Source: a virus
Lineage: Duplodnaviria; Caudoviricetes
IMG/VR virus record: IMGVR_UViG_3300036832_000931
Span: 1-59,264 of that record
Direction: 5' to 3' (one strand)
Length of the DNA: 59,264 nt
Position numbers and translations under genes: made by a program. The notes under the pieces were generated by a model. That model made no database searches and was not told the DNA's origin. It saw nothing but the letters and a program-made list of their open reading frames with translations. This document shows positions 17,100 through 58,901 of the stretch, in pieces. Numbering within the stretch: position 1 is the stretch's first letter; each line of letters opens with the position of its first letter.

Positions 17100-17175
17100 C
17101 CTCTTCTTCTCCTTGCGGTTATTTCTCTATTTTCTAGTGGTCTGAGCTGAGGTTTCACTGCTAATACGCAGGAAC

Positions 17176-17424
17176 CTACTTCCACTCGCCGGTCAAATAC
17201 TCGATCGGGCGTCCGGACAGTTCCGACCACTGCTTTAAATATGGACAATTCAGCGGCAACACCCGATGCTTCTGCAGGCGGTAGAGCACCCGCCAGTGGT
17301 GGCCGATGGCCTTGGCGACCTGCAGCATCGACGTAAAGTTGTTGCGTTTTCTGATCTGCGAGATCGCATCGAGCACGCGGTTGGTGGCGATCGTCTCCTC
17401 GCCGGGGATGTACTGATATTCCAC
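17176..17424 (-). CDS. Small DNA-binding-like protein (candidate repressor)
   Basis: HTH-like LQVAKAIGHHWRVLYRL...IEYLTG; divergent from the RecT operon and upstream of int. Confidence 0.45.
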   Translation of the reverse strand: MEYQYIPGEETIATNRVLDAISQIRKRNNFTSMLQVAKAIGHHWRVLYRLQKHRVLPLNCPYLKQWSELSGRPIEYLTGEWK

Positions 17425-17606
17425 TTCGCTTCTCCTTTTTTTGTCCCCGCCGGTAAGACCGTGTCAGACAATGACACGACGGCGGCTGATGTGCAACCAT
17501 ACCACTGCCGCAGCGTCAGTACCAGCTAATTTTGGTAACTAAGAGTCAATGTTGGTTATTAGTAGTGGATCATAGTGACGCCTTATAGGCACATGCGCGG
17601 TTACAT

Positions 17607-18008
17607 TTGACCACTTCGAGTGAGCGTGCTAGTTCTCCAAAACCGACGCAATCGCGTCAGCCTGAACGACAGACTTCGTGCATGGTTCCTGCGTTAAGAG
17701 CAGCGAAACTGGAGGGGAAAGTGTCTGTATACAGTCAACTTACGATCGTAGACGCCAAGCCGCGCATCATCCAGCAGTGCAGAGAGCAGGTCGTCAGGGT
17801 GATGGCGCAGCTGAAGTACTGCCATAACCTGCCGCTCATCATCAGAGACCCGTCGTTCCCCTTCGAGGATGTCCCGTGGCACGTAGAGGGACTTACCCCC
17901 GACCAGTTCGGGCGCATCGTGCCGCTCCTGATCGAAATACAACTCATCATGAAACGCGAAGACAAAGCGGAGGAAACCAATGGCCGACAATGCCCTGACG
18001 CTGCTTGA
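17607..18008 (+). CDS. Hypothetical protein (true start probably GTG ~17721)
   Basis: GGAGGGG RBS immediately after repeat copy 17684-17709; overlaps the RecT start. Confidence 0.45.
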   Translation: MTTSSERASSPKPTQSRQPERQTSCMVPALRAAKLEGKVSVYSQLTIVDAKPRIIQQCREQVVRVMAQLKYCHNLPLIIRDPSFPFEDVPWHVEGLTPDQFGRIVPLLIEIQLIMKREDKAEETNGRQCPDAA

Positions 18009-18897
18009 GCAGCAGAAAAACGAGATCCTGCAGACGCTGCCGGCGTCGATATCGCCTGAGCGGTGGTGGCAGCTCGCCATTCAGATAATCAAAAACCCAA
18101 CGCTGAATCGCTGCACCCCGGTCTCTTTGGTCGAGAGCTTACGTCAGATCGCGGCGTGGGGCCTCGAGCTCGATAACGAGGAAGCCACCATAATTCCCTA
18201 CGGTCAGCAGGCTACGCCTACGGCCATGATGAAGGGCGTGGTACGCCGCGTCATCGAGTCAGGTGCCGCCGTCCACGTCTACGCTGAGATCATCTGCGAG
18301 GGTGAGGCGATCCGTATTTCTTCCGGTACCACCGGCCGGAATATCGAGCACGAGCTAAGTTTCGGTTCACGCGGAAAGATCCTCGGGGCTTACGCAGTTG
18401 CGATCCTGCCCGGTGGTCTGACCGACTTCGAGCTCTTTGGCCAGAACGACATCGAGGCGATCCAGAAAGCTGCACTGCGCGTCAGCGGGGGTAAACCCTC
18501 TCCTGCGTGGCAGAGCTTCCCCGGCGAGATGCTCAAGAAGTCGGTGCTGCGCCGTCTCTGTAAGCGCCTTCGCGGTACTCGCGATACGGACGAGGCGCAT
18601 CGCTTCGACACCATGATGGACGGAATGAAGCGCGTCGAGCCTGAGCCTACCGCACCGCTTACCCCTGATGAAATGCCCAAGCCGGCAGAGCCGGTAGCGG
18701 AGACACCCTCGGCAGCTTTGGTTGATGAGGCTCAGATCGCCGTAATTGACGACAACGCACAGTCGACCGGAATTCCACCCAAGAAGTACGCGAAGCTCAT
18801 GCAGGAATTCGGCATTGCCGAGGAGTGTCAACTGCCGTCGGACAAATTGCCGGCGTTCTTAAGGCGCATGCACGAGCTAGCCGAGGCCAGCAACTAA
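17980..18897 (+). CDS. recT: RecT-family single-strand annealing protein
   Basis: LP..ISPER...NPTL..CTPVSL...GL......A.IIPY...RG.I.GAYAVA...PW...EM.KK.VLRRLCK. Confidence 0.85.
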   Translation: MADNALTLLEQQKNEILQTLPASISPERWWQLAIQIIKNPTLNRCTPVSLVESLRQIAAWGLELDNEEATIIPYGQQATPTAMMKGVVRRVIESGAAVHVYAEIICEGEAIRISSGTTGRNIEHELSFGSRGKILGAYAVAILPGGLTDFELFGQNDIEAIQKAALRVSGGKPSPAWQSFPGEMLKKSVLRRLCKRLRGTRDTDEAHRFDTMMDGMKRVEPEPTAPLTPDEMPKPAEPVAETPSAALVDEAQIAVIDDNAQSTGIPPKKYAKLMQEFGIAEECQLPSDKLPAFLRRMHELAEASN

Positions 18898-20626: not shown

Positions 20627-20866
20627 ATGAAAATCCCATCAGAGGAACTCGATATTATCGCGACCACCGTCGCTGAGATCGAACAGATCCTAAAAGGAAA
20701 AGGGTCCGCTATGCAGGGGGCAATCCTGGGCGATCTGCTCGCGACATGGCTGCACGGTCATAGCGACGTAGATGATGATCCAGTCAAGACAGCAGAAGTG
20801 CGCGATGAGCTACTCGCGGTACATATCAATTATGTCAAGCTGCTGGTGGCAGCGAACGACCTATAG
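20627..20866 (+). CDS. Hypothetical protein
   Basis: 79 aa; QGAILGDLLATWL.GH; TAG overlaps a repeat copy. Confidence 0.6.
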   Translation: MKIPSEELDIIATTVAEIEQILKGKGSAMQGAILGDLLATWLHGHSDVDDDPVKTAEVRDELLAVHINYVKLLVAANDL

Positions 20867-20906
20867 GTTCCTGCGTGTGAGCAGTGAAACCAGAGCATGT
20901 CGGTTC

Positions 20907-21821
20907 ATGAGCATCAAAGTCTTCTACAACGACAACGACCTGTATTGCGTGGAATGGTTAAACAATCTAATCGAGGCAGGGCACCTGCCGGAAGGAACCG
21001 TTGATGGCCGCAGCATCGAAGACCTTGAGCCCGCCGACCTTGACAGATATACGCACGCGCATTTCTTCTGCGGACTTGGAGGCTGGCCCTACGCCCTCGA
21101 GCTTACCGGGTGGCCACCAGACCAGCCTGTTTGGACCGGCAGCCCACCCTGTCAGCCCTTCAGCGCCGCCGGCAAAAGACAAGGAGACGCTGATAGCCGG
21201 GACTTGTGGTCGGCTTGGTTCCGGCTCATCCAAGAGTGTCGCCCTGCAACAATCTTTGGTGAACAGGTTGATGGAGCGATTGGGTGGGGATGGTGGGATC
21301 GAGTATGCGCTGACCTGGAAGGCGAAGATTACGCCTGCGCGGCGGCGCTATTGCCAGCTTGCAGCGTCGGCGCGCCCCATCTCCGCAACCGGCTTTTCTG
21401 GGTCGCAACCCTTGACGGGCTGGCCGACGCCAAACCCCCCGACCGGTGGTCGTTCAATCTTAAACATCGACCAGATGGACCCGACGGGCCGGACGGTGGA
21501 CGGCCGGAAACATACGGCGAGTCTGGAACACGCGGTGAAATTCACGGGCTGGGCAACACCGACCTCGCGCGACCACAAGGACGGAGCCTCGGACCTGAGC
21601 AACGTTCCGATCAACTGTCTGCTTGGGCGGCAAGCACGCCTATCTGGTGCAGTGATGGAAAGTGGCGGCGGGTACCGCTTGAACCACGGTTTCAGCCTTT
21701 GGCTGATGGGCTACCCGGTCGACGAGTGGCTGTCCTGCGTGCCGCGGGGAACGCCATCGTCTCCCAAGTCGCGGCAGAGTTCGTAAGAGCATTTCTCGAG
21801 GTTCCTGCATGTGAGCAGTGA
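20907..21821 (+). CDS. C5 cytosine DNA methyltransferase (alpha-like chain)
   Basis: FCGLGG (motif I), GSPPCQPFS (IV), GEQV (VI), H.R.R (VIII), GNAIV (X). Confidence 0.9.
   Translation: MSIKVFYNDNDLYCVEWLNNLIEAGHLPEGTVDGRSIEDLEPADLDRYTHAHFFCGLGGWPYALELTGWPPDQPVWTGSPPCQPFSAAGKRQGDADSRDLWSAWFRLIQECRPATIFGEQVDGAIGWGWWDRVCADLEGEDYACAAALLPACSVGAPHLRNRLFWVATLDGLADAKPPDRWSFNLKHRPDGPDGPDGGRPETYGESGTRGEIHGLGNTDLARPQGRSLGPEQRSDQLSAWAASTPIWCSDGKWRRVPLEPRFQPLADGLPGRRVAVLRAAGNAIVSQVAAEFVRAFLEVPACEQ
21001..21786 (+). CDS. Overlapping alternative-frame ORF, candidate MTase beta subunit (start uncertain)
   Basis: 261 codons open inside the MTase gene; WPTP/WATP repeats and LNHGFSLWLMGYP resembling motif IX. 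Confidence 0.55.
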   Translation: MMAAASKTLSPPTLTDIRTRISSADLEAGPTPSSLPGGHQTSLFGPAAHPVSPSAPPAKDKETLIAGTCGRLGSGSSKSVALQQSLVNRLMERLGGDGGIEYALTWKAKITPARRRYCQLAASARPISATGFSGSQPLTGWPTPNPPTGGRSILNIDQMDPTGRTVDGRKHTASLEHAVKFTGWATPTSRDHKDGASDLSNVPINCLLGRQARLSGAVMESGGGYRLNHGFSLWLMGYPVDEWLSCVPRGTPSSPKSRQSS

Positions 21822-21926
21822 AACATCAAGCTGAGCACTGCGCCTTAAGGTTTTTTTCTTAAAGCGCATGTACAATCGAACAGGTTCCTGCGTACCAGCA
21901 GTGAAACGTTATGCAGTTGCTCTATC

Positions 21927-22385
21927 GTGAAAAAGCTAGTCCTGACTCCCGCTAGGGGGTTCGTGCGAACATCCAAAAAAGGGGTGTGGCAACCCAAAGA
22001 GTCCACCAGTCAATCCCAAGTGTTCGACTGGGCTAGGTGGGCACGGGGGCGTTATCCCGAACTCGATCTGATGTTCGCCGTCCCGAACGGATTTCCCCTC
22101 CACGGTCCTCAGCGTTTTGCCGTGGTCAATTATATGAAAGCGCAGGGGCTCAAGAACGGCGTGCCCGACATCAGCTTGCCCATCGCCCGCGGCGGATTCT
22201 TCCACAAATGGATCGAGATGAAGGTCAAAGGCGGGCGACTGAGTGAGGCACAGGAGGTCTGGATCCAAGCGCTCCGTAACGCCGGCGGGGACGTCTCAAT
22301 TTGCGAGTCGTTCGAGGAAGCGGTGGCTGATCTGGAAGGCTATCTTCAGTTGCCGAACACGCTCTCGTTCAGTGAAACGAATTAG
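21927..22385 (+). CDS. VRR-NUC domain nuclease
   Basis: FAVPNG...GLKNGVPD...WIEMK...GRLSEAQ..W...L. Confidence 0.85.
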   Translation: MKKLVLTPARGFVRTSKKGVWQPKESTSQSQVFDWARWARGRYPELDLMFAVPNGFPLHGPQRFAVVNYMKAQGLKNGVPDISLPIARGGFFHKWIEMKVKGGRLSEAQEVWIQALRNAGGDVSICESFEEAVADLEGYLQLPNTLSFSETN

Positions 22386-23409
22386 TCATCGCTTCGAGAC
22401 GCTCGCGCGCAGAAGCCTGCAGCGTGAGCATATTAATCTCCATTGGATCGGTGATTGGCAGTTGCTCCGGATTAACTGGAAGCTGCGACTTCGGCATCTT
22501 GGCCTCGGTGGCAGCATCCCAGCGGTTCTGCTCGTTAAGCAGCGCGAGTTCCCACCACTGCGCGAGTTTGTGCGCGATCGGAGGGAACAGGCACGAACTT
22601 TTACCCGCGAGCACATGATCCTCCCACTCGGTCTTGCTCGCGTTAATGCTGTAATAAGCGCACATTGCTGAGAATGAGTGGAATTGCCAGCCATACAAGA
22701 TGACCGGCAATTCGATACTCCTCCGCTGTTGGGCGCGCTGGCGATGGTGGCGAGCGTAGGCTCTGGCGTGTGCGAGGGCACCTTCTAGGCCTTCCTGTTT
22801 GATCCACCGCCTCACGACTCCCGGCGCTAGCCGGTAACGCCGACGCAGTTCACGAACAAACGCCACGAGACTGGGATAGGTGGTCCCATCGACAAGGATC
22901 CGGCTCCGTTCGACATCGCGCCGGAGCTGTTCGACATTATTGCCATTGGCACATAGTCGCGAATCAATCGTAGAGACTGGAAGACCGAGCCGAGGGGACA
23001 ATTCCCGAGCCAGCGCGCTGCGACTTAGTTCTCGTCCTTCGAACATGATGACGCGTGTCGGAGAAACACCGCGGCGGCGCGATGTCCGGTGCGTTTGACA
23101 CCACCGCAGCGCAGCATCGCCATCGCCATCATGATTTCGAATAATCGCTTTGAGCCATTTGACGCTGCGACCGGTAGATTGCGCTAATTCCTGAGCGGCC
23201 ACTTGCAAGGAAGGATATTCTCGACCGTTATACGTAATAGTACGTCGGTGGCGTTTCGGTTGCTGTTCGGACACGGCGTCACCGTCACCGTTTTGTGCCT
23301 TGAGAAGCTGATGGAGCCGCCGGAGACTCAGCCCAGTCTCCGGCTCCAGAAGCTTGGCGACGGCTTGAAGGGAGGTATATTGCTGACCCTTGTATGTTGC
23401 GCCGCGCAT
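22369..23409 (-). CDS. Hypothetical protein with tandem DNA-binding-like repeats
   Basis: Four units: YKGQQYTSL, YNGREYPSL, FEGRELSRS and VDGTTYPSL, each followed by a helical segment. Confidence 0.6.
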   Translation of the reverse strand: MRGATYKGQQYTSLQAVAKLLEPETGLSLRRLHQLLKAQNGDGDAVSEQQPKRHRRTITYNGREYPSLQVAAQELAQSTGRSVKWLKAIIRNHDGDGDAALRWCQTHRTSRRRGVSPTRVIMFEGRELSRSALARELSPRLGLPVSTIDSRLCANGNNVEQLRRDVERSRILVDGTTYPSLVAFVRELRRRYRLAPGVVRRWIKQEGLEGALAHARAYARHHRQRAQQRRSIELPVILYGWQFHSFSAMCAYYSINASKTEWEDHVLAGKSSCLFPPIAHKLAQWWELALLNEQNRWDAATEAKMPKSQLPVNPEQLPITDPMEINMLTLQASARERLEAMTNSFH

Positions 23410-24642
23410 TTAAACAGACAGCTGTTCGAACGCCGATCCCGCGGCCGGAGCTGCGGGGACGACCCGGCGGCGGCGGGCGAGCACATCACGCTCCCGACGC
23501 TCGGCCGCCTTACGCTCAGCCGCTTTGTTCCTGGCCCGAACGGCCGTCTGGTGAACGGCGTTGAGCTCCTCACGAAGCACCGGATTGAAGGTCGCGATCA
23601 CTCGCTGATCCGTCGGAAATTTATCTGCTTTGAAATCGCGCGCCGTCTTCCACCCCTCATAAGCATTGAGCACGTTCGCGAGCACCATCAAGTCGCGCTG
23701 ATCTCCTGTAATCTTGATCTTTTGCTTCTCGTTTTTAGAGAGGAGTTGATTTTCGACCATTTTTATAGCGTAAAACGCGTCCATCAAACCGTCCATGTAA
23801 GCACCTTTTTCAGTTTGCAACTTCTCGAGGAACTCTCTCCCGCGTTCTCCATCGCGGTGCAGAACTGACAGATAACCAGCGATGAAAGCTGAGCCTAAAG
23901 GCATTTCCGACTTCGTGGGCGCGAGTGCATCAAGTGCTTCGAGCGCTGGTTTGAAATAATGAACGCTGGCGAGCAGCGGCAAACTTCGATGGACTTGCTG
24001 ATAGATAGGATCTGGATTCTCTTTCGCGAGCAACACTTCGCGAAATTCACTCATCACGGTACTGCCGCACACCGTTGCAGCGAGCTGCAGCACTTTACTC
24101 AGTCCACTTGCTTGACGCAGCCACCACCAGTTCGGGGTGATTTTCGCTACCCGAACCGTCGTCTGGTTCATATCTCTTCTAGCTTTAACCGCAATCAACG
24201 AATCTAAAGCATTGTAAGCCTTCGTTGCAGCGGCCATGTCGGTAGCAGCATAGACCGTAGTGCGTACGGTCGCCGGAGCCGGGATCCCCTCGAGACTCCA
24301 GACGTGGGTTCGCGTATGACCATTAAGTTTGTGTCCGCGTCGGCTGAATGCATCGTCGTGACTTGCATGCCACAAGCTGCTCAGGGATTCGATCGTATCG
24401 CCCTGCTCCGGTCTGCCGATCAGAATGGCGGCGACTTCCCGATGCTGGTCCAGAGGTTCATCGAGCACGCCTGAACTTATGAGTCTCGCAGCGTGCAAAA
24501 CAGTCTGCCGCTGGGCTGGATGGTCTGGCAACGCTGTGAACGTCCCAAGGGGCAGATCCTTGATCGTCTCCAAGTGAAGGATGTGGGGATTTGCAACAAA
24601 CGGAGCTGTCATGTTTCCTCCAGCGCCTTTTCGAGGCTGCAA
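23410..24642 (-). CDS. Hypothetical protein (weak ParB-like N-terminus)
   Basis: 410 aa; HPAQR...KLNGHTR..W. Confidence 0.55.
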   Translation of the reverse strand: MQPRKGAGGNMTAPFVANPHILHLETIKDLPLGTFTALPDHPAQRQTVLHAARLISSGVLDEPLDQHREVAAILIGRPEQGDTIESLSSLWHASHDDAFSRRGHKLNGHTRTHVWSLEGIPAPATVRTTVYAATDMAAATKAYNALDSLIAVKARRDMNQTTVRVAKITPNWWWLRQASGLSKVLQLAATVCGSTVMSEFREVLLAKENPDPIYQQVHRSLPLLASVHYFKPALEALDALAPTKSEMPLGSAFIAGYLSVLHRDGERGREFLEKLQTEKGAYMDGLMDAFYAIKMVENQLLSKNEKQKIKITGDQRDLMVLANVLNAYEGWKTARDFKADKFPTDQRVIATFNPVLREELNAVHQTAVRARNKAAERKAAERRERDVLARRRRVVPAAPAAGSAFEQLSV

Positions 24643-24767
24643 CTTTGGTTTGACGTGCTGTTCTGCGCGCCGAGCGGACTATACGCCTTTGCGATAAAAT
24701 ATTACAATAGCGAGTGCCAGTGATCGAATAATTGGGTGGGAAAGCGGATGTGACGATGAGATACGGC

Positions 24768-25013
24768 ATGATCACAGGAGCTCAGATTCGTGCGGCTCGT
24801 GCCCTGCTTGGGTGGACGGCTACCGATCTGGCTGAAAAATCCGGCGTCAGCTATGCGTCGATCCAGCGCGCGGAGGCAGTCAACGGCGTCAGCACGATGC
24901 GGGCAAAGAATCTTTACGCTTTACAGCGCGCGCTTGAGGACGGTGGAGTGATCTTCCTTGGCGCTAGCGATAACGGTGGCGATGGATTGCGGCTGAAGTG
25001 TGAACTAAGTTAA
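24768..25013 (+). CDS. XRE-family HTH transcriptional regulator
   Basis: MITGAQIRAARALLGWTATDLAEKSGVS..SI.RAE...LE.GGV.F. Confidence 0.85.
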   Translation: MITGAQIRAARALLGWTATDLAEKSGVSYASIQRAEAVNGVSTMRAKNLYALQRALEDGGVIFLGASDNGGDGLRLKCELS

Positions 25014-25141
25014 GGTTCAGGGGGGCAGCGGTATTTCTCGTTCCACGCGACATACCACGCGAATGCGATCACGGTCACCACTCCACCGACGAAGCCGAAG
25101 ATACAGCCCAACACCAGACCGTCTATAAACGGTGTCATCAT
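25010..25141 (-). CDS. Small membrane protein (43 aa)
   Basis: Hand-translated MMTPFIDGLVLGCIFGFVGGVVTVIAFAWYVAW...; G-rich RBS. Confidence 0.4.
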   Translation of the reverse strand: MMTPFIDGLVLGCIFGFVGGVVTVIAFAWYVAWNEKYRCPPEP

Positions 25142-25165
25142 GGCAGTGCCCCCCCTTGGGCTATT

Positions 25166-25546
25166 TTAGGCGGTCTTCTCTCCCACTACTTCCTCGATCA
25201 CCAATCCAGCCACTACCGGTGAATAGGCAGCTGCAGTCAGTTGTGAGGCGACCGCGATCAAATGCACCCACTGATCGCGTCCTACATCGCCGGCATACTG
25301 CAACAGCGCGGTATGGAACTGTGCGAAGCTCTTCCACACCACTTTCTCGGTGGGTGACAGCACCATCTCCGGTGCTTTCGGTGCAACGATGGAGATGCGC
25401 GGGCGGTTAATTGGTGGACGATCCTGCAACGAAATCAGTTCCCGTTGCAGCCGCTGGAGTTCCTGCTGAAAAGGGGTATCCGGCAGTGCCTGCTGGAGTT
25501 CGAGGATCTGCCGCTGCAATTCTTCGAGTTGGACTTTCATGCTCAT
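25166..25546 (-). CDS. Hypothetical protein
   Basis: 126 aa; coupled to the tail fibre stop (ATGA). Confidence 0.6.
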   Translation of the reverse strand: MSMKVQLEELQRQILELQQALPDTPFQQELQRLQRELISLQDRPPINRPRISIVAPKAPEMVLSPTEKVVWKSFAQFHTALLQYAGDVGRDQWVHLIAVASQLTAAAYSPVVAGLVIEEVVGEKTA

Positions 25547-27999: not shown

Positions 28000-28003
28000 T
28001 AAC

Positions 28004-28174
28004 TTATTCCTTCATTACCACGCCATTAGCTGGCAATGCGTCAGCAGGTAGTTGTGGCTTCGCCTGCTCCATAATGGCGTTAATCAGGGGCATCGCACGT
28101 TTGATCGATTGATCCCCCAGCATGTCCAAAATCTGGTTCCATTGTTCAACGGTTAGTTTGATCGTTATTTCCAT
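28004..28174 (-). CDS. Small tail-associated protein
   Basis: MEITIKLTVEQWNQILDML...LINAI..QA; typical fibre-adjacent small protein. Confidence 0.55.
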   Translation of the reverse strand: MEITIKLTVEQWNQILDMLGDQSIKRAMPLINAIMEQAKPQLPADALPANGVVMKE

Positions 28175-28533
28175 TAGAATGTTCCCCCGTCGATCGGGCT
28201 TAGTAATTGCCAACTCGCAGTTGCACCATTTCTAACGTAGGGTTGCGATGCTCCGGTTGGGGCCTCCCCTAGACCCCCCGCTGGTCCAGGCGGCCCTTGT
28301 GCTGGCACTCCGGTATCGGTGGTACCAACAAACCAATTGCCGTTGGGGCCGATATATGGGCTCTCGGAAACTCCGGCGGTCAGATGCGCAGCGACATCCA
28401 GAATGCGGTAGTACTGATCCTGATTCAGCTCGCCCAGTACGGAGGTGAGCTTGGTCAGCATGTACATAAAGGTGTCCCAAGTATTTTGCTCGTCAGCCGG
28501 CAGAGGCGCTCGGGGAATTGCTGCTGCTGCCAT
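28174..28533 (-). CDS. Tail-associated protein with short collagen-like segment
   Basis: PYIGPNGNWFVG..DTGVPAQGPPGPAG...YVR..ASW...IDGGTF. Confidence 0.65.
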   Translation of the reverse strand: MAAAAIPRAPLPADEQNTWDTFMYMLTKLTSVLGELNQDQYYRILDVAAHLTAGVSESPYIGPNGNWFVGTTDTGVPAQGPPGPAGGLGEAPTGASQPYVRNGATASWQLLSPIDGGTF

Positions 28534-28541
28534 GTTTCACC

Positions 28542-50816: not shown

Positions 50817-50823
50817 TATTTGC

Positions 50824-51717
50824 CTATGCGAACTGACGGGTGTTGCTGCCCATCATCAGCGCGAGCAGTTGCGCCAGTGCCGGATTCTGACCGCCGCCTC
50901 CTCCCGCACTGATGCCAGCCGCGGTCGGCATATTACCTCCACCTTGATTAGCCATCACTCCGGCAGCACCGGGTAGTTGCTGTGCCGGAGGAGTCTGCAG
51001 AGGAGCTACCGGCTTGGGAGTCATCTGCTGAGGTGGTGCAGCCGGTGGTGGTGTCGGCTGCGTGTTCTGCTGCTGACCCTGTCCGCCACCCATCACAGCT
51101 TTTGCCGCTTGTTGTGCCGCTGGTGACTGCATCACCTGACCAGTAGGTGACTGGAGAAAACTATTGAGTTTCCCCATGATCCCTCCACTGCCGGGAGCGG
51201 CTCCCTGCTCTGTTGATGCTCCAGTAACCTGATTCTGCAGTGAGCTCAGGAGCGGGTTGCTGCCCAAGGCCGAATTGATGTCACCCATTCCCGGCGCGCC
51301 ACCGGTTCCAGGTGTTGCCAAGTTTGGAGTCGGCCCGGGAGTACCGGCACCTACTTTCCCACTGAACATGTTGCCGATCCCACTGGCCATGCTGCCCAAT
51401 CCGCTACTAGCCATTCCCGGTAGATTACTCAGACCACTCAGCCCGAGGCTGCCTGTCAGGCCACCGCCGCTGGTCATACCTGCGGTACCACCGGCACCGA
51501 GGGCTGATAGACCCTCTGCACCGCCACCGGCCAGCCCACCGACCATGCTGCCCATGTTGGCTCCGGACTGACCGCCCGCCCCTTGTCCCGCCATCTGCCC
51601 AACCCCGGACATCATCAGGGGAACCCCGATTTCAGGTGCGCCGAAAGCGGTGGCCGCAGCGCCACCGACCGTCTTCAGACCCCCGAAGATGTAATTATTT
51701 GAGCCGCCACCACTCAT
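50824..51717 (-). CDS. Gly-rich internal virion/ejection protein
   Basis: G/A/M/S-rich; MSGGGS start. Confidence 0.6.
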   Translation of the reverse strand: MSGGGSNNYIFGGLKTVGGAAATAFGAPEIGVPLMMSGVGQMAGQGAGGQSGANMGSMVGGLAGGGAEGLSALGAGGTAGMTSGGGLTGSLGLSGLSNLPGMASSGLGSMASGIGNMFSGKVGAGTPGPTPNLATPGTGGAPGMGDINSALGSNPLLSSLQNQVTGASTEQGAAPGSGGIMGKLNSFLQSPTGQVMQSPAAQQAAKAVMGGGQGQQQNTQPTPPPAAPPQQMTPKPVAPLQTPPAQQLPGAAGVMANQGGGNMPTAAGISAGGGGGQNPALAQLLALMMGSNTRQFA

Positions 51718-51759
51718 ATTAATTTACTGCTTTCAGTTTCACTGCAATTACGCAGGAAC

Positions 51760-52530
51760 CTAGTTTTGCCGCGCGGCTATCCGGTCTTGCCGCGCCTGTT
51801 GTCTCGCTGCTACTTTCTCTTGTCGCGCTTCTTTTCGCGCTGCTACCTTCTCTTGCCTTTGCTCTTGCCTTGCCTGTCTCAGTTCTTGGCGTAGCTCCTT
51901 CGGGGTCTGCTGAGTTGTCGGGCCACCCTGAACGGGAGCAGGCGGGGGTGCAGGAGCCGGTGGTGGAGGTGCAGCGGCAGTTCCGGCAGCTCCTGGCGAA
52001 AACATCCCACCGAAGCTGCTGGGACTAGGGGTACCAGCATTCATACCCCCGCCCATTACGGGATTGGCAGGATTAGGATTCGTCGTCAGACCGCTGGTGA
52101 AGCCTCCCAGCGGATTTGACCCACCATAAAGACCGGCTAATTGAGATGCCGCAGCCGGTGACGTTGCACCGGCAAACGCCGCAGGATTCTGCGCTGCCAT
52201 GTTTTGCAGAAAGGGACTACCCGAGATCATCGGGGAGAACAGCGAATAGGCACTCCCGCTAGGATCGATCTGCTGGAGCATCGAGGCTGCGGCCTGCCCG
52301 CCACCTCCGCCGGCTCCACCACCAGTCGTGGTGACACCGGTATTGGCACCACCGGTCGGAAAGCTTTCGCCCGGTGTGTTGAACCAACTGGACGGGACGG
52401 TGCTGCCGGGAAAGACATAGCCCATCAGGGAGGAGAGATAAGCCTTGGCCGGCTCACGCTCCCACTGCGGCAGCTTTTGGTTGCTCTGCGTGGTGGTCTG
52501 TTGTGACCCGCTACCGCCGCCTCCGCTCAT
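51760..52530 (-). CDS. Gly-rich internal virion/ejection protein
   Basis: MSGGGGSGSQQTTTQ...LP.W..P...YL; basic C-terminal ARQE repeats. Confidence 0.6.
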   Translation of the reverse strand: MSGGGGSGSQQTTTQSNQKLPQWEREPAKAYLSSLMGYVFPGSTVPSSWFNTPGESFPTGGANTGVTTTGGGAGGGGGQAAASMLQQIDPSGSAYSLFSPMISGSPFLQNMAAQNPAAFAGATSPAAASQLAGLYGGSNPLGGFTSGLTTNPNPANPVMGGGMNAGTPSPSSFGGMFSPGAAGTAAAPPPPAPAPPPAPVQGGPTTQQTPKELRQELRQARQEQRQEKVAARKEARQEKVAARQQARQDRIAARQN

Positions 52531-52588
52531 AGTTCGCTCTCCTTATGATCACGATATATTCAGTTTCACCGCCAGTACGCGGGAACCT

Positions 52589-53701
52589 TTATTTACCTGC
52601 CGCGGACGAGGGTGAGGTACCAACCTGCACGCTCGTACCACCACCGCCTGACGCGGTACTCAAGCCTTGTCCCAGATCACTGAGAGCTTGTAGTGGCCAG
52701 TTCGCCTGCCCAGTCAGATTCTGATACGCCGTGTTGAGGACGTTCTGCGCCTGCTGTTGGCCTGTAGCACCAGATTGCATGAGTTGTTGCGGAACCTGAT
52801 ACATCGCGTTGGTCAGTTGCGGAGCCATCTGACCGGCATTCTGCGCCGCCTGTAGCTGCTGACCGTAGATGTTGCCAGCCTCCTGCATGCCCTGGCCGTA
52901 CAGGCTTGTAGCATTCCCCATCCCTTGCCCTAACAAGCTGGCGGCAGTACCGAGACCTTGCCCGTACATGTTCGCCGCGGTGTTCATGCCCTGCCCCAAC
53001 ATGCCGGTAGTTGCGCTCAGATTTTGCGCATAAGCAGGCTCATAAATGCCCGCCGCGAGATTACCTAGGCCCTGACTGAGTGCGTTCTCGGCATTGCCGT
53101 AAGCCTGCGCCTGACCTGCGCTGCCGAGCGTACCGGTCTGCGCAGCGTTCTGGAGGATACCGGGAGCAACCGTTTGCTGGAATTGCTGGGTGAGCGGCTG
53201 TGCCGCAGCATTGAAGTATTGTTGCAGGTACTGATTGTCCGATGGGTTCATCAACCCACCGCCCATGATGTTGGAAGCCATACCCGCACCTGCCTGCTGG
53301 TACTGGTTGGCTAGGGCGTTTTCATTACCGAGCTGTCCGACCGCATTACCGGTAATCGCGTTCTGATTACCAAGTTGGCCGATCGCGTTATTCATCAGCG
53401 CGTTCTGCCCACCCAGATTACCAACGGCATTACCGGCGATGGTGTTTTGCCCGCCGATCGCGTTGCCGGCGTTGGCACCGATCATCTGCTGCTGATTGGC
53501 GGCATTGCCGAGGAAGTTCTGCGCCCAGGGGGTTATCTGGGAGACGAGGTCCATGCCCTGCTGCTGCTGCTGTGTCAGCGGAGCTATTTGTTGGTAGGGA
53601 GTCATCTCCATACCGACTTGGGGAGGAGCAACGCCGCCACTGCCTATCGATCCACCGGCCTGATTAGCTGACACGGTTACCCCGCAAGTTGGTAGTTTCA
53701 C
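52589..53701 (-). CDS. Gln/Gly/Asn-rich DNA ejection (pilot-like) protein; true start likely slightly downstream
   Basis: PYQQIAPLT..QQ.G...NQYL...; G/N/Q/A repeats typical of podovirus ejection proteins. Confidence 0.6.
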   Translation of the reverse strand: MKLPTCGVTVSANQAGGSIGSGGVAPPQVGMEMTPYQQIAPLTQQQQQGMDLVSQITPWAQNFLGNAANQQQMIGANAGNAIGGQNTIAGNAVGNLGGQNALMNNAIGQLGNQNAITGNAVGQLGNENALANQYQQAGAGMASNIMGGGLMNPSDNQYLQQYFNAAAQPLTQQFQQTVAPGILQNAAQTGTLGSAGQAQAYGNAENALSQGLGNLAAGIYEPAYAQNLSATTGMLGQGMNTAANMYGQGLGTAASLLGQGMGNATSLYGQGMQEAGNIYGQQLQAAQNAGQMAPQLTNAMYQVPQQLMQSGATGQQQAQNVLNTAYQNLTGQANWPLQALSDLGQGLSTASGGGGTSVQVGTSPSSAAGK

Positions 53702-53723
53702 CGCTCATACGCGGGAACCTTGT

Positions 53724-54182
53724 TTATACTTTCGCTGTTATCGTCACCCAGGTCGCCGACCAGCCAAATTTACGAGCGAAGGCTTTTGCGCGACGCGGGC
53801 GCGTAACCCACGTAATCTCACTAGTTCCGTAGACTGTTTTAGCGATATTAGCAATATGGTTCCATACACTAGCTACCACCGCCGGCATATGGTCGTCTGG
53901 TAGCCACTCTCGCATCGGGATGTTCCAGGCACACCAGACAAACAACTCTGGCTCATAGTTAAAGATGCGTTGCTGCTTGGAATAGACTAGGAAACCCAAC
54001 ATACGCTCGTCGCGACGAGCCATGACACAGTTAACCTGTGCCCCTTTCATCGCTGCATAAAGGTCTTCCGGGAGCCAGTTGGGTTGCATGTCGCGCTTTA
54101 CATCGAGCATCCCACGCAACAAAAAGGGCCAGAAGTGGTGGAGCTCCTCTGGCTTTAACTCGATTAATTCAGTTCGCGACAC
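53724..54182 (-). CDS. Hypothetical protein (possible GNAT-like fold)
   Basis: W.PEDLY......GFLV......LFVW.AW; upstream of the ejection genes. Confidence 0.55.
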   Translation of the reverse strand: MSRTELIELKPEELHHFWPFLLRGMLDVKRDMQPNWLPEDLYAAMKGAQVNCVMARRDERMLGFLVYSKQQRIFNYEPELFVWCAWNIPMREWLPDDHMPAVVASVWNHIANIAKTVYGTSEITWVTRPRRAKAFARKFGWSATWVTITAKV

Positions 54183-54807
54183 CGCTGTTCGATAGCTTGC
54201 TCAAGACGTACGACTGCGGGTCGGTGTTTTTACTCGGCGTCTTCAGATAATCGTTGATCTGCTGCATCAACTTCATTTGTTCAGGGGTGTATCCACCTTT
54301 GTTCCCCTTCGTCCAATCTGAGGTCTTGAACATGCCGCCACCGCGGATGTACTCCTGAGCCTGCACCTGCCGCAGAAAACGATCGTAACTCCTCATATTA
54401 CTGTGCGGCGATAAGTCGTAGGGCTGAGGCTGATCTGCCGCCATCGATTCCGCCAAACCTTTTACATAAACCTGCCGTGCGCTGGCGTGCTGTTCCGGCG
54501 TCATCGACTTGATGAACTGCTCCGTGAAGCCCTGATACGTGGGATCGGTGGCTTGCAGCCAATGGAGCGACTCGAGACCGAGCGTTTCCGGCCAGCTCGA
54601 AGGATCGGTCAGGGGTTTGTTGCCCCGCAATTGAACGTGCCAGTTATCAGGTGTCGGATTGCCCTCCTCGCCAGGAGGGTATGTTTCGCTCCAGTCCTTG
54701 CCCGTCCCTTTGCTCATCTTCACGTCCCAGTTTGCGAGCCGGGGCCACTGCTGCTTAGCCTGGGCTATAGCTGCATCAAACGCACCCTGATCGTTTTCAT
54801 CGTTCAT
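54169..54807 (-). CDS. Hypothetical protein
   Basis: ORF starting just after repeat copy 54810-54834. Confidence 0.55.
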   Translation of the reverse strand: MNDENDQGAFDAAIAQAKQQWPRLANWDVKMSKGTGKDWSETYPPGEEGNPTPDNWHVQLRGNKPLTDPSSWPETLGLESLHWLQATDPTYQGFTEQFIKSMTPEQHASARQVYVKGLAESMAADQPQPYDLSPHSNMRSYDRFLRQVQAQEYIRGGGMFKTSDWTKGNKGGYTPEQMKLMQQINDYLKTPSKNTDPQSYVLSKLSNSGVAN

Positions 54808-54834
54808 AAGTTTCACTGCCGATACGCAGGAACC

Positions 54835-55494
54835 TCAATCATCATCGTCGTCTACGTCGTATCCGCCGTCACCGATATTTCGCGGTTTGCTCCAGATCAT
54901 CTCTGACGGTCTGATCACCTTGCCCACCGCCTCACCATCATCAAGCGGCAGCAGACCGAAATGCGCCAGCCCCTCAGCTTCGTCGGCACAGTCAGCGTCA
55001 TGCTGCTTATCCATATAATCGAGGCGCTCGAGCACTTCGCGCATATGCTGGTTCATGATGTTGAGCCGCTCGCTGAGCTGCGACACAGTACGCATCGCTT
55101 CAACCACCTCATCGGTGTGAGCGACTAGATGGGCGAATTTACTTTCGTCACGCACGAGAGCACCCCGCATATCCGTAATCTGACTAAGCACCAGTGCCAT
55201 AAAGTCCGGCCACTGCGCAGCCATCGCGGCGTAGCTGTTCTTGCCGTTCGCGAGCTGACGGATGCGGGCTACTACCGCACGGGTCCAGAGCATCGCCTGC
55301 GGATCGAGGTCGCCGGTCTGTGCCCACAACTCCTTGGTATCGAGATTGGCCGGTATCAGATCGACCGGGGGATGGTAATTATCGCAGCCCTCGATGGCAC
55401 GGGCACCATAGGTAGGTACCCCTTGTTGATCCCTGCGGAGGATTCCCCAGGGGTGTGATTTGCCGCATACGCATGGCCTCATTTCATCTTTCAT
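54835..55494 (-). CDS. Hypothetical protein
   Basis: 219 aa; GAGGTGG RBS; TGA abuts a repeat copy. Confidence 0.6.
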   Translation of the reverse strand: MKDEMRPCVCGKSHPWGILRRDQQGVPTYGARAIEGCDNYHPPVDLIPANLDTKELWAQTGDLDPQAMLWTRAVVARIRQLANGKNSYAAMAAQWPDFMALVLSQITDMRGALVRDESKFAHLVAHTDEVVEAMRTVSQLSERLNIMNQHMREVLERLDYMDKQHDADCADEAEGLAHFGLLPLDDGEAVGKVIRPSEMIWSKPRNIGDGGYDVDDDDD

Positions 55495-55697
55495 AAAACC
55501 ACCTCTACTTCATCTTATAGTCACATGCTCGATCTCCCGATAATTCTCACCCAAGATAAACCGCATACAGTCACAGCCCCTTTCCCGGCATACCCCTTCC
55601 TCGTCCTGATGCAGCATCCGAGTGTGACCGCAGAGGCAGAACTGCTGATGCCATACGCTGGCACAATGCGGTCTGCGTGAGATTCGTTTCACTGCCA

Positions 55698-55967
55698 TTA
55701 CGCAGGAACCCCAAATAACTCCCCCTGGCGAGCGGGTTCGCATTGATGCTTGCGAATAATGCGAACAATGTGCGGGCGCATGGCATCCGGATACACGGCG
55801 AAACAGTGCGTACCCTTACCGTTGGTCTTCTCGCGAAGCTCCTTGGGTGGCAGTTCGCCGTGGATGGAGAACCACAGATCCCGTGTCTCTTCACCGACCG
55901 CCCAGGAGAGATTGGGAGTGATGTCCACCCTCTCTTCACGCATGACATCAATCACTGTGATGCTCAT
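55698..55967 (-). CDS. Hypothetical phage protein
   Basis: ITVIDVMRE...WAVG...GELPPK.LREKT.G.GTHCFAVYP; ends GVPA* inside a repeat copy. Confidence 0.6.
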   Translation of the reverse strand: MSITVIDVMREERVDITPNLSWAVGEETRDLWFSIHGELPPKELREKTNGKGTHCFAVYPDAMRPHIVRIIRKHQCEPARQGELFGVPA

Positions 55968-56116
55968 GGTCTTCCCCGTTCCGTTTCACTGCTCTAAACG
56001 CAGGAACCTTACGGTTCGTACGTAACGGCGGTGAAACAAGAGAAGTTTCACTGCTAGTACGCAGGAACCGCCGCCTCATCGTTTCACCGCCCGTACGCGG
56101 GAACCCGTACTGCCGC

Positions 56117-56536
56117 TTACACCACGACGATGCTGTCCGATGGTGGGGCGGCGGTGGAGCCGAGTGCGTTGGTGGCGGTAACCACGCAGGTCGCAGTTTT
56201 GCCCACATCATCGCTTACAATCGTATAGTCCGCGGCATTGGTACCGACATCGGTCCCGTCCAATTGCCACTGGTAAGCGTAGAAGGTGGGTACGCCCACC
56301 CATTCGCCCATTGTGCAGTGCAGCACACTGCCGCTCTGCGACACGTGCGGCACTGTCGTGTTAACGGGAGCACCGGCGGGGTAATTACGCTCCATCAGGT
56401 ATTGGCTGGTTTCTTCGGCATAGCTGAACACTCGCCAGCCGTAGTGCCCGAGGTCATTGACCTCATCGAGCGTAGTTGACCACCGGTATTCATATCGATC
56501 CGGCAGTGCCGTACCTTTTGTTTCTGCTCTTGCCAT
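56117..56536 (-). CDS. Ig-like domain protein
   Basis: PVNTTVP......L.CT.GEW.G.PT.YAYQW..DG...YT....DVGK...C.VTATN..GS. Confidence 0.7.
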   Translation of the reverse strand: MARAETKGTALPDRYEYRWSTTLDEVNDLGHYGWRVFSYAEETSQYLMERNYPAGAPVNTTVPHVSQSGSVLHCTMGEWVGVPTFYAYQWQLDGTDVGTNAADYTIVSDDVGKTATCVVTATNALGSTAAPPSDSIVVV

Positions 56537-56627
56537 GATTTACCTTTTTCGCTGAACCTCAGTGTTTCACTGCCACTACGCAGGAACCTTGCTTTGGATT
56601 ATAGTTTCACTGCCCAAACGCAGGAAC

Positions 56628-58274
56628 CTACCCAGCCATCCAACTACCACCAGAATCAGCACCTCTATTACCAAATGGACTACCACCATACTCCGCATCC
56701 CCGCGGTAGCGCCTCGGCCACACAATATTAAGGGCCGGATCGAACAGGCGGCTCAAAGCGTCCAGCATGTCTCGCTGTTTGGGATTGTACGGCCATAACA
56801 AAAACTCATCATTAATAAAGTGCTGCACCAAGTCGACTTCGCTGCCGTCTTTCAGCTTTTTCTTGATGCCGTCTTTAGGAAAGAGAATGCGCCGGTCACG
56901 GAAGGGAGGGATCAGCCAACCGATGCGGCCGTCTTTAGACATGCCGCCGGACAATTGTACGATCGTAAACATCTGGTTGAGTTCGCGCATACGGAAGTGG
57001 AAGTGCTCGATGTCGCACTGCATCCCGTATTTCTCGTAACCAACCTTCAGCGGATCCCAGCGGGTCACCGCCTGGAACACCGCCTCCCAGCGCTCCTCAA
57101 GATCCAGCTTGTCGCAGATCACGTCACAAATCCGAACGCGCTTGTCTGCTCCAAGCGCTACCACCCACAGGGCGAAGCGGCTGTTGCTGTCGGGATTATT
57201 GCCGGCCGGATCGACCAAGACGTATTTGTTCATGCCGGTGAGCGAGTCGTCCTTGGCGTCCCAGTAATCCAGCCACTCGTGGCTGAAGCCAACCTCGTGA
57301 GGATCCTTCGCCTGACTCGGGTCGAGCAGAATCTGCAGGGCGAAGACCTTGGGGGACAGGGCGGATTTGAAAAAGGAGAACTTCTCATCGCTCAGATAAG
57401 CGGGCTGATGATTCTCATCAAACGGTCCACGCAGCCTGAGCTTGCCCACTCTGCGCTTGATCAACTCGCTGGTCGTATCGCCAAACTCCTGAAAGGTCGC
57501 GATGTATCTGAAGATGGGCGGGTCGGAGGCGGTCAGCAGCAGCGAGTTATCAAACTGCTCGGTAGTGGTGGCGATCATCAGGGTCGAGGTCTGATCCCGC
57601 GCCACGACATCATCATATATAAGGCGGCGGTAGCGCTTGCCGACCGGCTGTCCATCGACCAGACCCCACGCCTCGATGGTGGCCTCTTTGGGATTACCCT
57701 TGCGCTTGACGGTGATGCCGTCATTCTCGCCCCAGCTTACCGAGGCGGTGCGGCACTCATGTTTGGGATCCTGCCACAAGACATCATCGAAGAGATCCTT
57801 GAGGAGCTGGTTGGTTTCGAATTCCCGCTTGATCAGGGTCAGGAAGTCCTTGGCCATCGGGCGGGTATGGCTGAAGAAACCGAACGTCACCTCGGGATCA
57901 TTGAGGATATCCTGAATGGTCAGCCCGAAGGTGATGATCTCGGATTTGTACGACTCGCGAGGCCACAGGTCGAGGTGATTATTGGGATTCTCTTGGACCT
58001 CAGTGCAGCGTTTAAAAGTCCAGCGAGTCTTTCGCTCGTCCGCCAGGAAATGCTTGCGGTTGAGAAGATAGACCAGCAGAAAGAAGAGATCGTGTTGTCC
58101 CAACCAGCGCAGATGATCACGGCGCATCGGGGCGGAACAGTTGCGGGTTTCCGTCCACCACCACTGGGCATTAGCCGGCGAGGTGGAGCGGTGCAGCGGT
58201 GGATGTTCGGCGCAGGCGTTGGTCTTGCGCAGTGCGCCGATTAAATCCTCAAAGCCGTTACCCCGTTTAGGCAT
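56628..58274 (-). CDS. terL: Terminase large subunit
   Basis: PRESYKS (Walker A variant), G.R...LIYDD (Walker B), VDPA nuclease motif, K..RI..L.P, DMLDALS. Confidence 0.9.
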   Translation of the reverse strand: MPKRGNGFEDLIGALRKTNACAEHPPLHRSTSPANAQWWWTETRNCSAPMRRDHLRWLGQHDLFFLLVYLLNRKHFLADERKTRWTFKRCTEVQENPNNHLDLWPRESYKSEIITFGLTIQDILNDPEVTFGFFSHTRPMAKDFLTLIKREFETNQLLKDLFDDVLWQDPKHECRTASVSWGENDGITVKRKGNPKEATIEAWGLVDGQPVGKRYRRLIYDDVVARDQTSTLMIATTTEQFDNSLLLTASDPPIFRYIATFQEFGDTTSELIKRRVGKLRLRGPFDENHQPAYLSDEKFSFFKSALSPKVFALQILLDPSQAKDPHEVGFSHEWLDYWDAKDDSLTGMNKYVLVDPAGNNPDSNSRFALWVVALGADKRVRICDVICDKLDLEERWEAVFQAVTRWDPLKVGYEKYGMQCDIEHFHFRMRELNQMFTIVQLSGGMSKDGRIGWLIPPFRDRRILFPKDGIKKKLKDGSEVDLVQHFINDEFLLWPYNPKQRDMLDALSRLFDPALNIVWPRRYRGDAEYGGSPFGNRGADSGGSWMAG

Positions 58275-58364
58275 TTACCTGATTCTCTTCAAGCGTTTCA
58301 CTGCCGGTTACGCAGGAACCTAACCTTCACTCATCGCTTCGTTTCACTGCCGATACGCAGGAAC

Positions 58365-58901
58365 CTAGTCTATTTTCTCAGCGAGTTTTTCGTCCTCCGC
58401 TGCCAGCTCCTTCAATAATTCACTCATCGCCTCGGGATGGTTACGCAAAGCGCGTTCGATCCGCTCAATCGCCCAGCGCGGGATCCCGCTGGCGTCATGG
58501 CCCATCTCGCGGCGTACCTTGACGATGGAGTCGAGGATACCGCGCAGCGTATCGAGCGCCGACAGGACTAACTTCTCGTCAACGGTAAAGCTCTGTACGT
58601 GCTGCTGGAGGTGAGGATCCCAGACCTTGAGTGCTGATTTACTGTGCTTGGCCCGCCACACGCACATCCGTCCCTCTTGCCAGAGATCGACGAAGCGCTC
58701 GTGAATGTCCGCCCAGTCGAGCTGTTTGCCGTTACGTACCGCGGCGCGGAGCTGGTCACCTTTTATCTTGATGGCGCGGACAGGAGCTTTGGGCGGCGGC
58801 TGCTGACGGAACTTCTCCGCCGTATATTCGTTCGGGACCAGATGCTTTTCAGGTGGCTGCGGCAGCTTGTAGCCGTCTTTTTGTGTTAGTTCGTCAGCCA
58901 T
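58365..58901 (-). CDS. Candidate terminase small subunit
   Basis: Position directly upstream of terL; helical, 178 aa. Confidence 0.45.
   Translation of the reverse strand: MADELTQKDGYKLPQPPEKHLVPNEYTAEKFRQQPPPKAPVRAIKIKGDQLRAAVRNGKQLDWADIHERFVDLWQEGRMCVWRAKHSKSALKVWDPHLQQHVQSFTVDEKLVLSALDTLRGILDSIVKVRREMGHDASGIPRWAIERIERALRNHPEAMSELLKELAAEDEKLAEKID

Follow-up and report, generated by a model that had tools for sequence, protein, structure and literature searches.

Why do hairpins that look like part of a CRISPR repeat begin, in one gene after another, on a stop codon? The question is raised by IMG/VR record IMGVR_UViG_3300036832_000931, a tailed phage (Duplodnaviria; Caudoviricetes) from a soil metagenome, linear according to IMG/VR, the entire contig of which (59,264 bases) was analysed and is called the window below. 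The contig encodes a Cas12m-type effector and carries dozens of copies of a short hairpin, both inside and outside CRISPR arrays. An earlier note, made from the sequence alone, had claimed that these hairpins are registered to the stop codons of 19 genes, and had proposed that cutting 5′ of the hairpin splits transcripts into cistrons each led by a protein-bound hairpin, or that a bound protein blocks translational coupling. Its interpretation is partly supported by the present analysis: the register holds up and most of its origin can be explained, and as a sign of a CRISPR protein acting on the messages of its own phage the register gives hints and no proof.

Hairpins begin on stop codons

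Genes were defined as open reading frames (ORFs) and codon-model calls made here, and the 19 stops named in the earlier note close ORFs of 69-548 codons; start codons, and hence the downstream distances, are less certain than stops. The position of a stop is expressed as d, the first base of the stop minus the first G of the hairpin, read in the sense strand. All 19 stops were found where the note had put them. Thirteen overlap the hairpin or lie no more than 4 nucleotides (nts) before it, as seven TAG that share the G, three TGA that abut it and three TAA.

At d = -2 the hairpin G is the last base of TAG. This is the case for the hairpin at 17152-17176 (-), which shares the G of TAG 17176-17178 (ORF 17176-17424) and is followed after 52 nts by the ATG at 17099, and for the hairpin at 20866-20890 (+), which shares the G of TAG 20864-20866 (ORF 20627-20866) and precedes by 16 nts the ATG at 20907 of a DNA methyltransferase gene. 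The same arrangement is seen at 36789-36814 (-) with TAG 36814-36816 (ORF 36814-37074), at 37089-37114 (-) with TAG 37114-37116 (ORF 37114-38169) and 14 nts including GAGG to the ATG at 37074, and at 51736-51760 (-) with TAG 51760-51762 (ORF 51760-52530) and 18 nts to the ATG at 51717. It recurs in the first member of two hairpin pairs, at 56564-56628 (-), behind TAG 56628-56630 of the large terminase gene, and at 58295-58365 (-), behind TAG 58365-58367 of ORF 58365-58901.

At d = -3 the hairpin abuts TGA. These hairpins lie at 39562-39587 (-), after TGA 39588-39590 of ORF 39588-40058; at 41328-41353 (-), after TGA 41354-41356 of ORF 41354-42064; and at 54810-54834 (-), after TGA 54835-54837 of ORF 54835-55494, the last with only 2 nts to an in-frame ATG at 54807. 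At d = -4, TAA is followed by one A and then by the hairpin: the pair at 38188-38254 (-), composed of 38229-38254 and 38188-38212, starts 1 nt past TAA 38256-38258 of ORF 38256-39512 and ends 18 nts before the ATG at 38169, and the hairpin at 52563-52587 (-) starts 1 nt past TAA 52589-52591 of ORF 52589-53674 and ends 32 nts before the ATG at 52530. A single case has d = -7, the hairpin at 53695-53719 (-), 4 nts past TAA 53724-53726 of ORF 53724-54182.

In the remaining six genes the stop is inside the hairpin, and the claim that this gives VPA-type or similar C-termini holds: five are read in the frame GTT-CCY-GCG, which encodes VPA. They are ORF 2688-2957 (TAA 2688-2690 in the hairpin 2674-2700, -; protein end KVPA), ORF 9723-9986 (TGA 9984-9986 in 9971-9996, +, which lies 29 nts before the effector ATG; VPAK), the effector gene itself (TGA 11442-11444 in the loop of the first repeat of array B; VAVEVPA), the methyltransferase gene (TGA 21819-21821 in 21800-21824, +, a copy with one mismatch; VPACEQ) and ORF 55698-55967 (TAA 55698-55700 in 55686-55710, -; GVPA). 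The sixth, ORF 40583-40792 (TGA 40583-40585 in 40580-40605, -), ends in FPRLER; it encodes 69 very hydrophobic residues, the last six of which come from the hairpin.

Two after-gene hairpins absent from the earlier list are out of register. One, 56081-56105, belongs to a cluster of four at 55983-56105 (-), of which one copy is inverted (56013-56037, +), beginning 11 nts past TAA 56117-56119; the other, 1271-1295 (-), lies 24 nts past the stop of ORF 1320-1526 and 18 nts before the ATG at 1252. Hairpins are also present in leaders, singly at 36565-36589 (-), 32 nts before the GTG of the major head protein gene, and five together at 58917-59245 (-), in the leader of the packaging and head operon.

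The register was compared with several random expectations. Twelve dispersed copies have d between -4 and -2, versus a mean of 0.10 (maximum 2 in 5000) for random placement over the contig and of 0.43 (maximum 5 in 5000) for random placement in non-coding DNA. When each hairpin block was instead moved within its own present-day gap, with 0-15 nts kept for the next ribosome-binding site, 2.3-6.2 junctions were expected to have the hairpin no more than 1 nt after the stop, while 12 of 15 were observed (P = 4e-9 to 1.2e-4). Present-day gap lengths alone do not explain the register. The distance from stop to hairpin has a median of 0 nt and that from the last hairpin to the next start a median of 20 nts (range 2-52), indicating that the coupling to the stop is the tighter one. 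As to the statement that the next ribosome-binding site closely follows, a clear Shine-Dalgarno motif was seen by eye within this downstream distance in only about half of the cases. TAG is mildly enriched at the abutting stops (7/13 vs 11/48; Fisher one-sided p 0.037).

The base before the hairpin suggests where these stops come from. Position -1 is A in all 13 abutting copies, in 9 of the 11 copies within genes and in 27 of the 58 that do not abut a stop, whereas A makes up 21% of the contig. The full repeat of the array has the 5′ edge GTTGA/GGTTCC (the slash marks the start of the hairpin), and mini-arrays of the same repeat in two bacterial metagenome-assembled genomes (MAGs) read TCGA/GG. 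Judged from these sequences, TGA/GG, TA/GG and (TA)AA/GG are variants of one edge that supplies or completes the stop. A stop triplet at the same offsets is also carried by 6 of the 19 copies with no gene in front.

The hairpin as the handle of the phage effector

The pattern GGTTCCYGCG-loop-GCRGTGAAAC with a loop of 4-8 nts matched the window exactly 50 times, versus 0 times in 100 shuffles. A looser scan (up to 4 mismatches) gave 76 matches, of which 51 were exact, 3 had one, 16 two, 1 three and 5 four mismatches, and gave 0-2 matches in each of five shuffles. We kept 71 copies, that is, all those with up to two mismatches and a covarying copy at 40081; 22 are in tandem arrays (2958-3446 and 11505-12003) and 49 are dispersed, the first unit of array B (11432-11457) being placed in the stop-in-hairpin class and not in the array class. 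A single shape, a 7-bp stem with one bulged U, is predicted for 64 of the 71 (mean -7.9 kcal/mol), and Watson-Crick pairs fill 556 of 568 stem cells. Three stem pairs show double changes: at one, 5 copies have C:G for T:A; at another, 5 have T:A and 3 have G:C for C:G; and the third is C:G in 30 copies versus T:A in 38. Of the 49 dispersed copies, 45 read in the same direction as the nearest gene (binomial p 8e-10).

The effector gene (10026-11444, +; 472 residues) matches the Pfam domain Cas12f1-like_TNB (7.9e-11). A profile of its family (A1, 15 members), searched against the PDB, matched Cas12m (23vw_A, E 2.9e-51, profile positions 28-473), UnCas12m4a (3.1e-31) and Cas12m2 (4.5e-12). The profile and Pfam matches together mark the effector as a homologue of Cas12m, with its RuvC-like fold and zinc-ribbon TNB domain. 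The protein collection holds 42 relatives besides the sequence itself, most of about 500 residues and none informatively named. The conserved C-terminus, AVAVEVPA in the consensus of 15 homologues, is the translation of the first 21 nts of the repeat.

Directly 3′ of the gene, the repeat scan found array B with 11 handles (11432-12003, +), the proximal units of which are full 37-nt repeats, GTTGCAGTNGA plus the hairpin, and the distal units hairpin-only with short gaps; the start-to-start spacing is 73, 61, 75, 65 and 67 nts and then 48-36 nts. The same scan gave array A (2958-3446, +), 12 hairpin-only units spaced 34-51 nts from start to start. The gaps between tandem hairpins are mostly 13-20 nts. 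The dispersed unit equals the last 26 nts of the 37-nt repeat in the proximal units of array B.

In Cas12m2, the first 7 of the 36 nts of the repeat are disordered, and the ordered core has one base flipped out, a G:A pair, a helix of 6 bp and C(-1), which is read base-specifically (PMC10442227). In a by-eye analogy with that description, the phage hairpin has G1, then G2 facing A, a helix of 7 bp and C as its last base. Because the dispersed unit has the same parts as this solved core of CRISPR RNA (crRNA), the dispersed hairpin is, on sequence grounds, the handle of the phage's own Cas12m-type effector, and it is called the handle below. This supports companion claims to those of the earlier note.

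Described Cas12m systems (MmCas12m2, GoCas12m, MsCas12m, PmCas12m; PMC10442227, PMC11013384, 10.64898/2026.03.26.714355) are alike in effector homology, in a repeat of about 36-37 nts with a 3′ helix closed by G:A and a terminal C; a single short crRNA without trans-activating crRNA (tracrRNA) is reported for the family. Unlike them, the phage effector has 472 residues versus about 577-614 in the solved chains, its array has irregular, shrinking spacers, and about 49 handle-only copies lie outside arrays, in operons, where most first after-gene copies start on the stop. Cas12p ('hacker') was considered for comparison and set aside as a different, tracrRNA-using family.

The overlap of repeat and effector gene also recalls TnpB with its omega RNA at IS200/IS605 right ends, where the nuclease gene and the scaffold overlap at the gene's 3′ end, as the repeat here encodes VAVEVPA. 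A further likeness is that two array-less effector homologues have a degenerate 3′ handle and an inverted handle about 330 nts upstream. The differences are that the contig has no Y1 transposase, that NCBIfam TnpB models scored below their cut-offs, and that the scaffold is a repeat of 26-37 nts versus about 150 nts for omega RNA (quoted in PMC11013384). Those homologues, on loci L089 and L074, are 46-53% identical to the effector and lack an array, with a degenerate handle at the gene 3′ end; the arrangement at L089 380-720 and 2100-2620 and at L074 1780-2260, with its upstream inverted handle, looks like transposon ends. In the phage itself, an inverted handle (9341-9365, -) lies about 660 nts upstream of the effector gene, and a handle with a 9-nt loop (10677-10705, +) is in frame within it.

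Origin of the register

Relatives with no handles show what the junctions may have looked like before. Two were informative, L001, with a portal 55% identical, and G008, with a head protein 77% identical and a genome 84% complete; the order of the head module is shared with both, and neither has handles or the effector. The nine closest relatives by head protein have 0 handles. At the positions of the window's handle junctions, the gaps are 12, 2 and 0 nts in L001 and 1, -1 and 10 nts in G008, and at a further junction (40789 to 40058) the genes overlap by 1 nt (L001) and 4 nts (G008). In four genes abutted by a handle (38256, 37114, 53724 and 41354), the C-terminus is within 1-3 residues of the end of the L001 homologue, indicating that the handle follows the native gene end and the protein is not truncated. 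Within the window, the median gap of hairpin-free same-strand junctions is 0 nt, and the junctions with a hairpin are each 21 nts or longer.

Because the junctions of the relatives are 0-12 nts or overlapping, the place for an insertion that leaves both genes intact is right against the stop, and because it needs to bring or acquire a new leader, the asymmetry between the upstream and downstream sides is explained as well. Insertion of hairpin plus leader, followed by selection, would thus largely account for the origin of the register, as judged from compared sequences. The argument of the earlier note that random insertion would not give this register is therefore not supported as it was put, since it ignored selection acting at junctions as short as those of the relatives, and the full repeat by itself reads TGA/GGTTCC.

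Variation among close relatives is in line with such insertions. Contigs 85-95% alike from two soil runs, each variant resting on a single contig with a depth of about 5, have one handle and not two at 58308-58354 and an extra handle plus 25 nts at 51717-51724. In the X2 variant, an extra handle is located between the overlapping genes 54169-54816 and 53724-54182 (at 54171-54183), the 13 overlapping bases flank it on both sides, and the joint would read T/AG-GTTCC on the stop. Direct repeats also flank two handles of the window, the 9-nt GTTTAGACC on both sides of that at 41328 and the 7-nt GAGGTTA at 37089 (at least 7 nts are expected by chance for 3.9% per copy). The three flanking repeats resemble target-site duplications that un-overlap two genes.

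We considered guide-directed homing of handles into empty sites, but the 13 nts past the extra handle of X2 do not occur at the empty site of the window; a guide of that sequence would find no match there, and homing was dropped as a main reading.

These observations raise the possibility of a selfish or neutral spread, in which array-derived units multiply by duplication, slippage or illegitimate recombination and survive where they are harmless, with no function in trans. The tolerated sites would be gene borders, leaders and tolerant parts of large proteins, and the register would be a by-product of zero-gap junctions and of the stop built into the unit. We regard this account as possible though doubtful. 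It explains the register as well as an acting effector would, and fits the relatives' gaps of 0-12 nts, the copy number that varies between contigs 85-95% alike, the tandem pairs and short-gap arrays, the decayed copies with 3-4 mismatches (6/76), and the direct repeats of 9, 7 and (in X2) 13 nts around three insertions; the 6/19 geneless copies with a stop triplet suggest that units are copied along with their stop. However, it leaves the 45/49 sense orientation unexplained, since a DNA-level parasite would be indifferent to strand, though antisense copies could be removed otherwise; the 51 exact copies among 76 would require slow decay or very recent spread; and the contig contains neither a Y1 transposase nor Cas1. 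The search for Y1 (PF01797) gave no match in the contig, which is about 63% complete, with a positive control in 6/14 genomes, and no Cas1 was found in the same incomplete contig.

Alternatively, the handles could be DNA-level recombination cassettes for modular gene exchange, like the promoter-stem-loop (PeSL) cassettes of T4-type phages, which PMC2839356 describes as repeated intergenic cassettes mediating gene gain and loss. The handle-flanked ORFs 54169-54807 and 40583-40792 gave no tblastn match in L001 or G008, and handle number varies among relatives, as this view would predict. We consider it highly improbable, because a PeSL is a promoter plus terminator and neither signal is present here, 25 nts are short for homologous exchange, and the strand bias and the kept pairing are left unexplained. 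A strong early promoter with a terminator, the hallmark of PeSLs, was looked for as an excess of promoter- or terminator-like sites and was not found; no handle is among the sense-strand sites that look like terminators.

Searches of other collections gave little beyond chance. The repeat pattern had 0 loci in viral_contigs, 50 in genome_contigs and 48 in metagenome_contigs, almost all single and close to a rough chance estimate; the exceptions above chance are the mini-arrays L013 and L036, the effector-homologue loci L089 and L074, and unrelated coding repeats (L029/L066). The mini-arrays are orphan pairs of the same repeat, intergenic in bacterial MAG contigs (L013 1355-1466, L036 160-271), one from an uncultured proteobacterium and one from a Binataceae; L013 has the full 37-nt repeat, and that of L036 has diverged in its 5′ part. 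Neither of the two MAG genomes yielded an effector homologue. G008 contains three near-perfect palindromes, TTCACCGCGCGGTGAA (L139 1172-1190, 8821-8839 and 16079-16097), which faintly resemble the reverse strand of the handle.

A possible role on the phage's own messages

What, then, might the handles do where they are? Binding of the effector to the phage's own messages is the most likely function, with a probability of about 0.4, because the handles are in sense orientation, their pairing is kept, their single-stranded ends match those recognised by Cas12m, and G008 lacks both handles and effector.

The layout is as follows. The stop overlaps the unpaired 5′ A-G-G, followed by the 7-bp stem with its bulged U, GAAAC, a leader and the next start; the leader is typically 14-32 nts (up to 52), often with a Shine-Dalgarno motif. 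Two causes may bring this about, the insertion of handle-plus-leader units flush with the stop in junctions of 0-12 nts or overlapping, and the 5′ edge of the handle, which may itself supply or complete the stop, as TGA/GG in the full repeat and as TA/GG or AA/GG in variants. The effector would bind the handles on messages. A ribosome that terminates here, with the stop in its A site, would lie over A-G-G and the 5′ arm and melt the latter, so termination and effector binding would exclude each other. Cas12m pairs 17 nts of guide (PMC10442227), and a characterised Cas12m trims at guide nts 17-18 (10.64898/2026.03.26.714355). With a short leader, the roughly 17 nts held as guide would include the next ribosome-binding site, and the next start is 13-22 nts after the handle in 14 of 23 junctions or leaders. 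The gaps of mostly 13-20 nts between tandem handles are similar in length. Handles may thereby let the effector uncouple or throttle neighbouring cistrons.

It is a further step to suppose that the register itself is functional, that is, that the stop is built into the A-G-G read by the effector, that ribosome and effector compete, and that the 17-nt slot holds the next ribosome-binding site. In that case ribosome-gated, protein-controlled coupling would replace stop-start coupling, cistron by cistron. We consider this stronger form rather unlikely.

Cutting of the message is possible in the proposed mechanism, yet not required for the register. PmCas12m is described as cutting its 36-nt repeat near the 5′ end, after nt 2-3 (10.64898/2026.03.26.714355). 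Extrapolated here, a cut at a similar distance would fall 8-9 nts upstream of the first G, and such a cut would strip an abutting stop from the upstream message, so the clean splitting into cistrons proposed in the earlier note is not predicted by known geometry.

Several findings weigh against binding of the effector to messages. Leaders of 47-52 nts at three junctions place the ribosome-binding site beyond a 17-nt guide. The dispersed units are without the 5′ 11 nts of the repeat, and since one characterised Cas12m keeps about 33 nts of repeat in the mature crRNA (10.64898/2026.03.26.714355), that the effector binds the short unit is assumed. All stem variants are also present in the arrays, and copying, with no selection after dispersal, may thus account for the double changes. 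The wobble test of the strand was uninformative (G.U 3 vs A.C 2), so that it is the orientation that carries the case for RNA. Eleven copies are inside genes, and 17 consecutive leftward genes from tail fibre to head protein (22369-36532) have no sense handle. In three other phage contigs with distant Cas12m-like genes, the handle is confined to arrays. Finally, the completeness of the contig is about 63% (CheckV).

The only copy in the handle-poor region is antisense (33337-33361), and the adjoining 22 kb hold, on the same strand, 36 of the 71 kept copies. The distant homologues in the three phage contigs adjoin regular arrays, the repeats of which end in a hairpin with a GAAC-type tail, an architecture shared with the handle and in favour of its identity with a CRISPR repeat.

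Binding to messages could also serve another end, with handles on abundant messages acting as decoys that soak up Cas12m of the host or of a rival phage by loading it with harmless self-derived guides. Such decoys have a parallel in RNA anti-CRISPRs (Racrs), intergenic phage mimics of CRISPR repeats that bind Cas proteins (PMC10651486), and the 37-nt repeat of the phage is also found in the orphan mini-arrays of the two bacterial MAG contigs. This use appears improbable: the phage encodes a matching effector, so its own protein would be titrated too; Racrs as described there are solitary, have their own promoter and no cas linkage, whereas the phage copies lie within operons; there is no enrichment of promoter-like sites near them; and neither MAG with a mini-array has an effector homologue. 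In 50800-59264, 3 promoter-like sites were found versus 4.3 expected, one of which overlaps the handle at 59180-59204.

Racrs and viral mini-arrays (PMC10651486; 10.1101/2023.03.03.530964) resemble the handles in being intergenic phage repeat hairpins thought to bind Cas as RNA. They differ in being solitary, promoter-driven small RNAs without a cas gene and aimed at the host system (PMC10651486), while the phage has dozens of sense copies in operons, a stop register and a cognate effector in the same contig, so that the absence of cas genes that marks Racrs does not apply.

Repetitive extragenic palindromes (REPs) and the bacterial interspersed mosaic elements (BIMEs) are short extragenic palindromes of bacteria that lie just past genes within operons. 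The handles could likewise be RNA elements independent of the effector, serving as barriers to 3′ exonucleases or as ribosome-stalling structures beside stops. The position directly past stops would suit this, and REPs within about 15 nts of a stop reportedly lower translation via ribosome stalling (Liang, Rudd and Deutscher, Mol Cell 2015). Such a role is nevertheless quite improbable, since the stem is weak (7 bp, -7.9 kcal/mol on average), the invariant unpaired 5′ GG and 3′ GAAAC would be without a role yet match Cas12m recognition, the sequence is that of a CRISPR repeat, and the sense handles have no T-run and none is terminator-like. No T-run follows GAAAC in any sense-strand handle, and none was flagged as terminator-like. 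REP and BIME clusters contain both orientations, whereas 45/49 of the handles are co-oriented with a single inverted cluster copy at 56013; the handles further differ in their weak stem, their CRISPR-repeat sequence, their place in a phage genome and the lack of a REP-associated tyrosine transposase (RAYT).

Regulatory self-guides were also considered. The 36 nts past the handle had 12-mer matches in the contig for 19 of 71 copies versus about 13 by a rough chance estimate, and since this count is near chance and no long match was found, the idea was dropped.

Wider meaning

In the literature consulted on Cas12m, Racrs and repeat-like elements, dozens of sense handles at phage stops are not described; what it describes are arrays, mini-arrays and solitary repeats. 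Should the handles be acted on by the effector, a CRISPR protein that binds DNA would also be at work on the messenger RNA of its own phage. This would be a natural version of an engineered design, the Cas hairpin between cistrons, and a compact, programmable means to uncouple operon genes. In the synthetic Csy4/Cas6 insulators reportedly made by Qi et al. in 2012, a CRISPR hairpin is placed between cistrons so that a Cas nuclease separates them; these are engineered and use a Cas6-type cut 3′ of the hairpin, whereas the phage layout is natural, of the Cas12m type and known from sequence. Even as tolerated parasites, the copies show CRISPR repeats proliferating outside arrays without Cas1, with a stop-reading 5′ repeat edge that lets copies slip in where genes overlap. 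The register offers a clean test of whether the handles are acted on by the effector or are parasites.

Other features of the contig

The tailed-phage assignment agrees with a P22-like portal gene (42065-44296), the large terminase gene (56628-58274) and the major head protein gene (35426-36532). In a megablast search with 42000-58000, no phage record matched at the DNA level, and the portal is at most 30% identical to those of named phages. The runs listed as containing 50800-59264 are two DNA-type soil runs, with no RNA run among them.

If the contig ends were joined, ORF 2-1252 (-) would gain 13 codons and stop at a TGA in the handle 59221-59245 (-), ending in ARVPASGR; no terminal repeat backing such a joint was found. 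Two full-length Twister-P5 ribozymes were detected at 4383-4440 (+) and 4725-4782 (+), scoring 46.7 and 56.8 bits versus a gathering score of 37.6. They flank the small ORF 4486-4722, the second beginning 2 nts past its TGA, indicating that processing at cistron borders between early genes occurs in this phage in any case.

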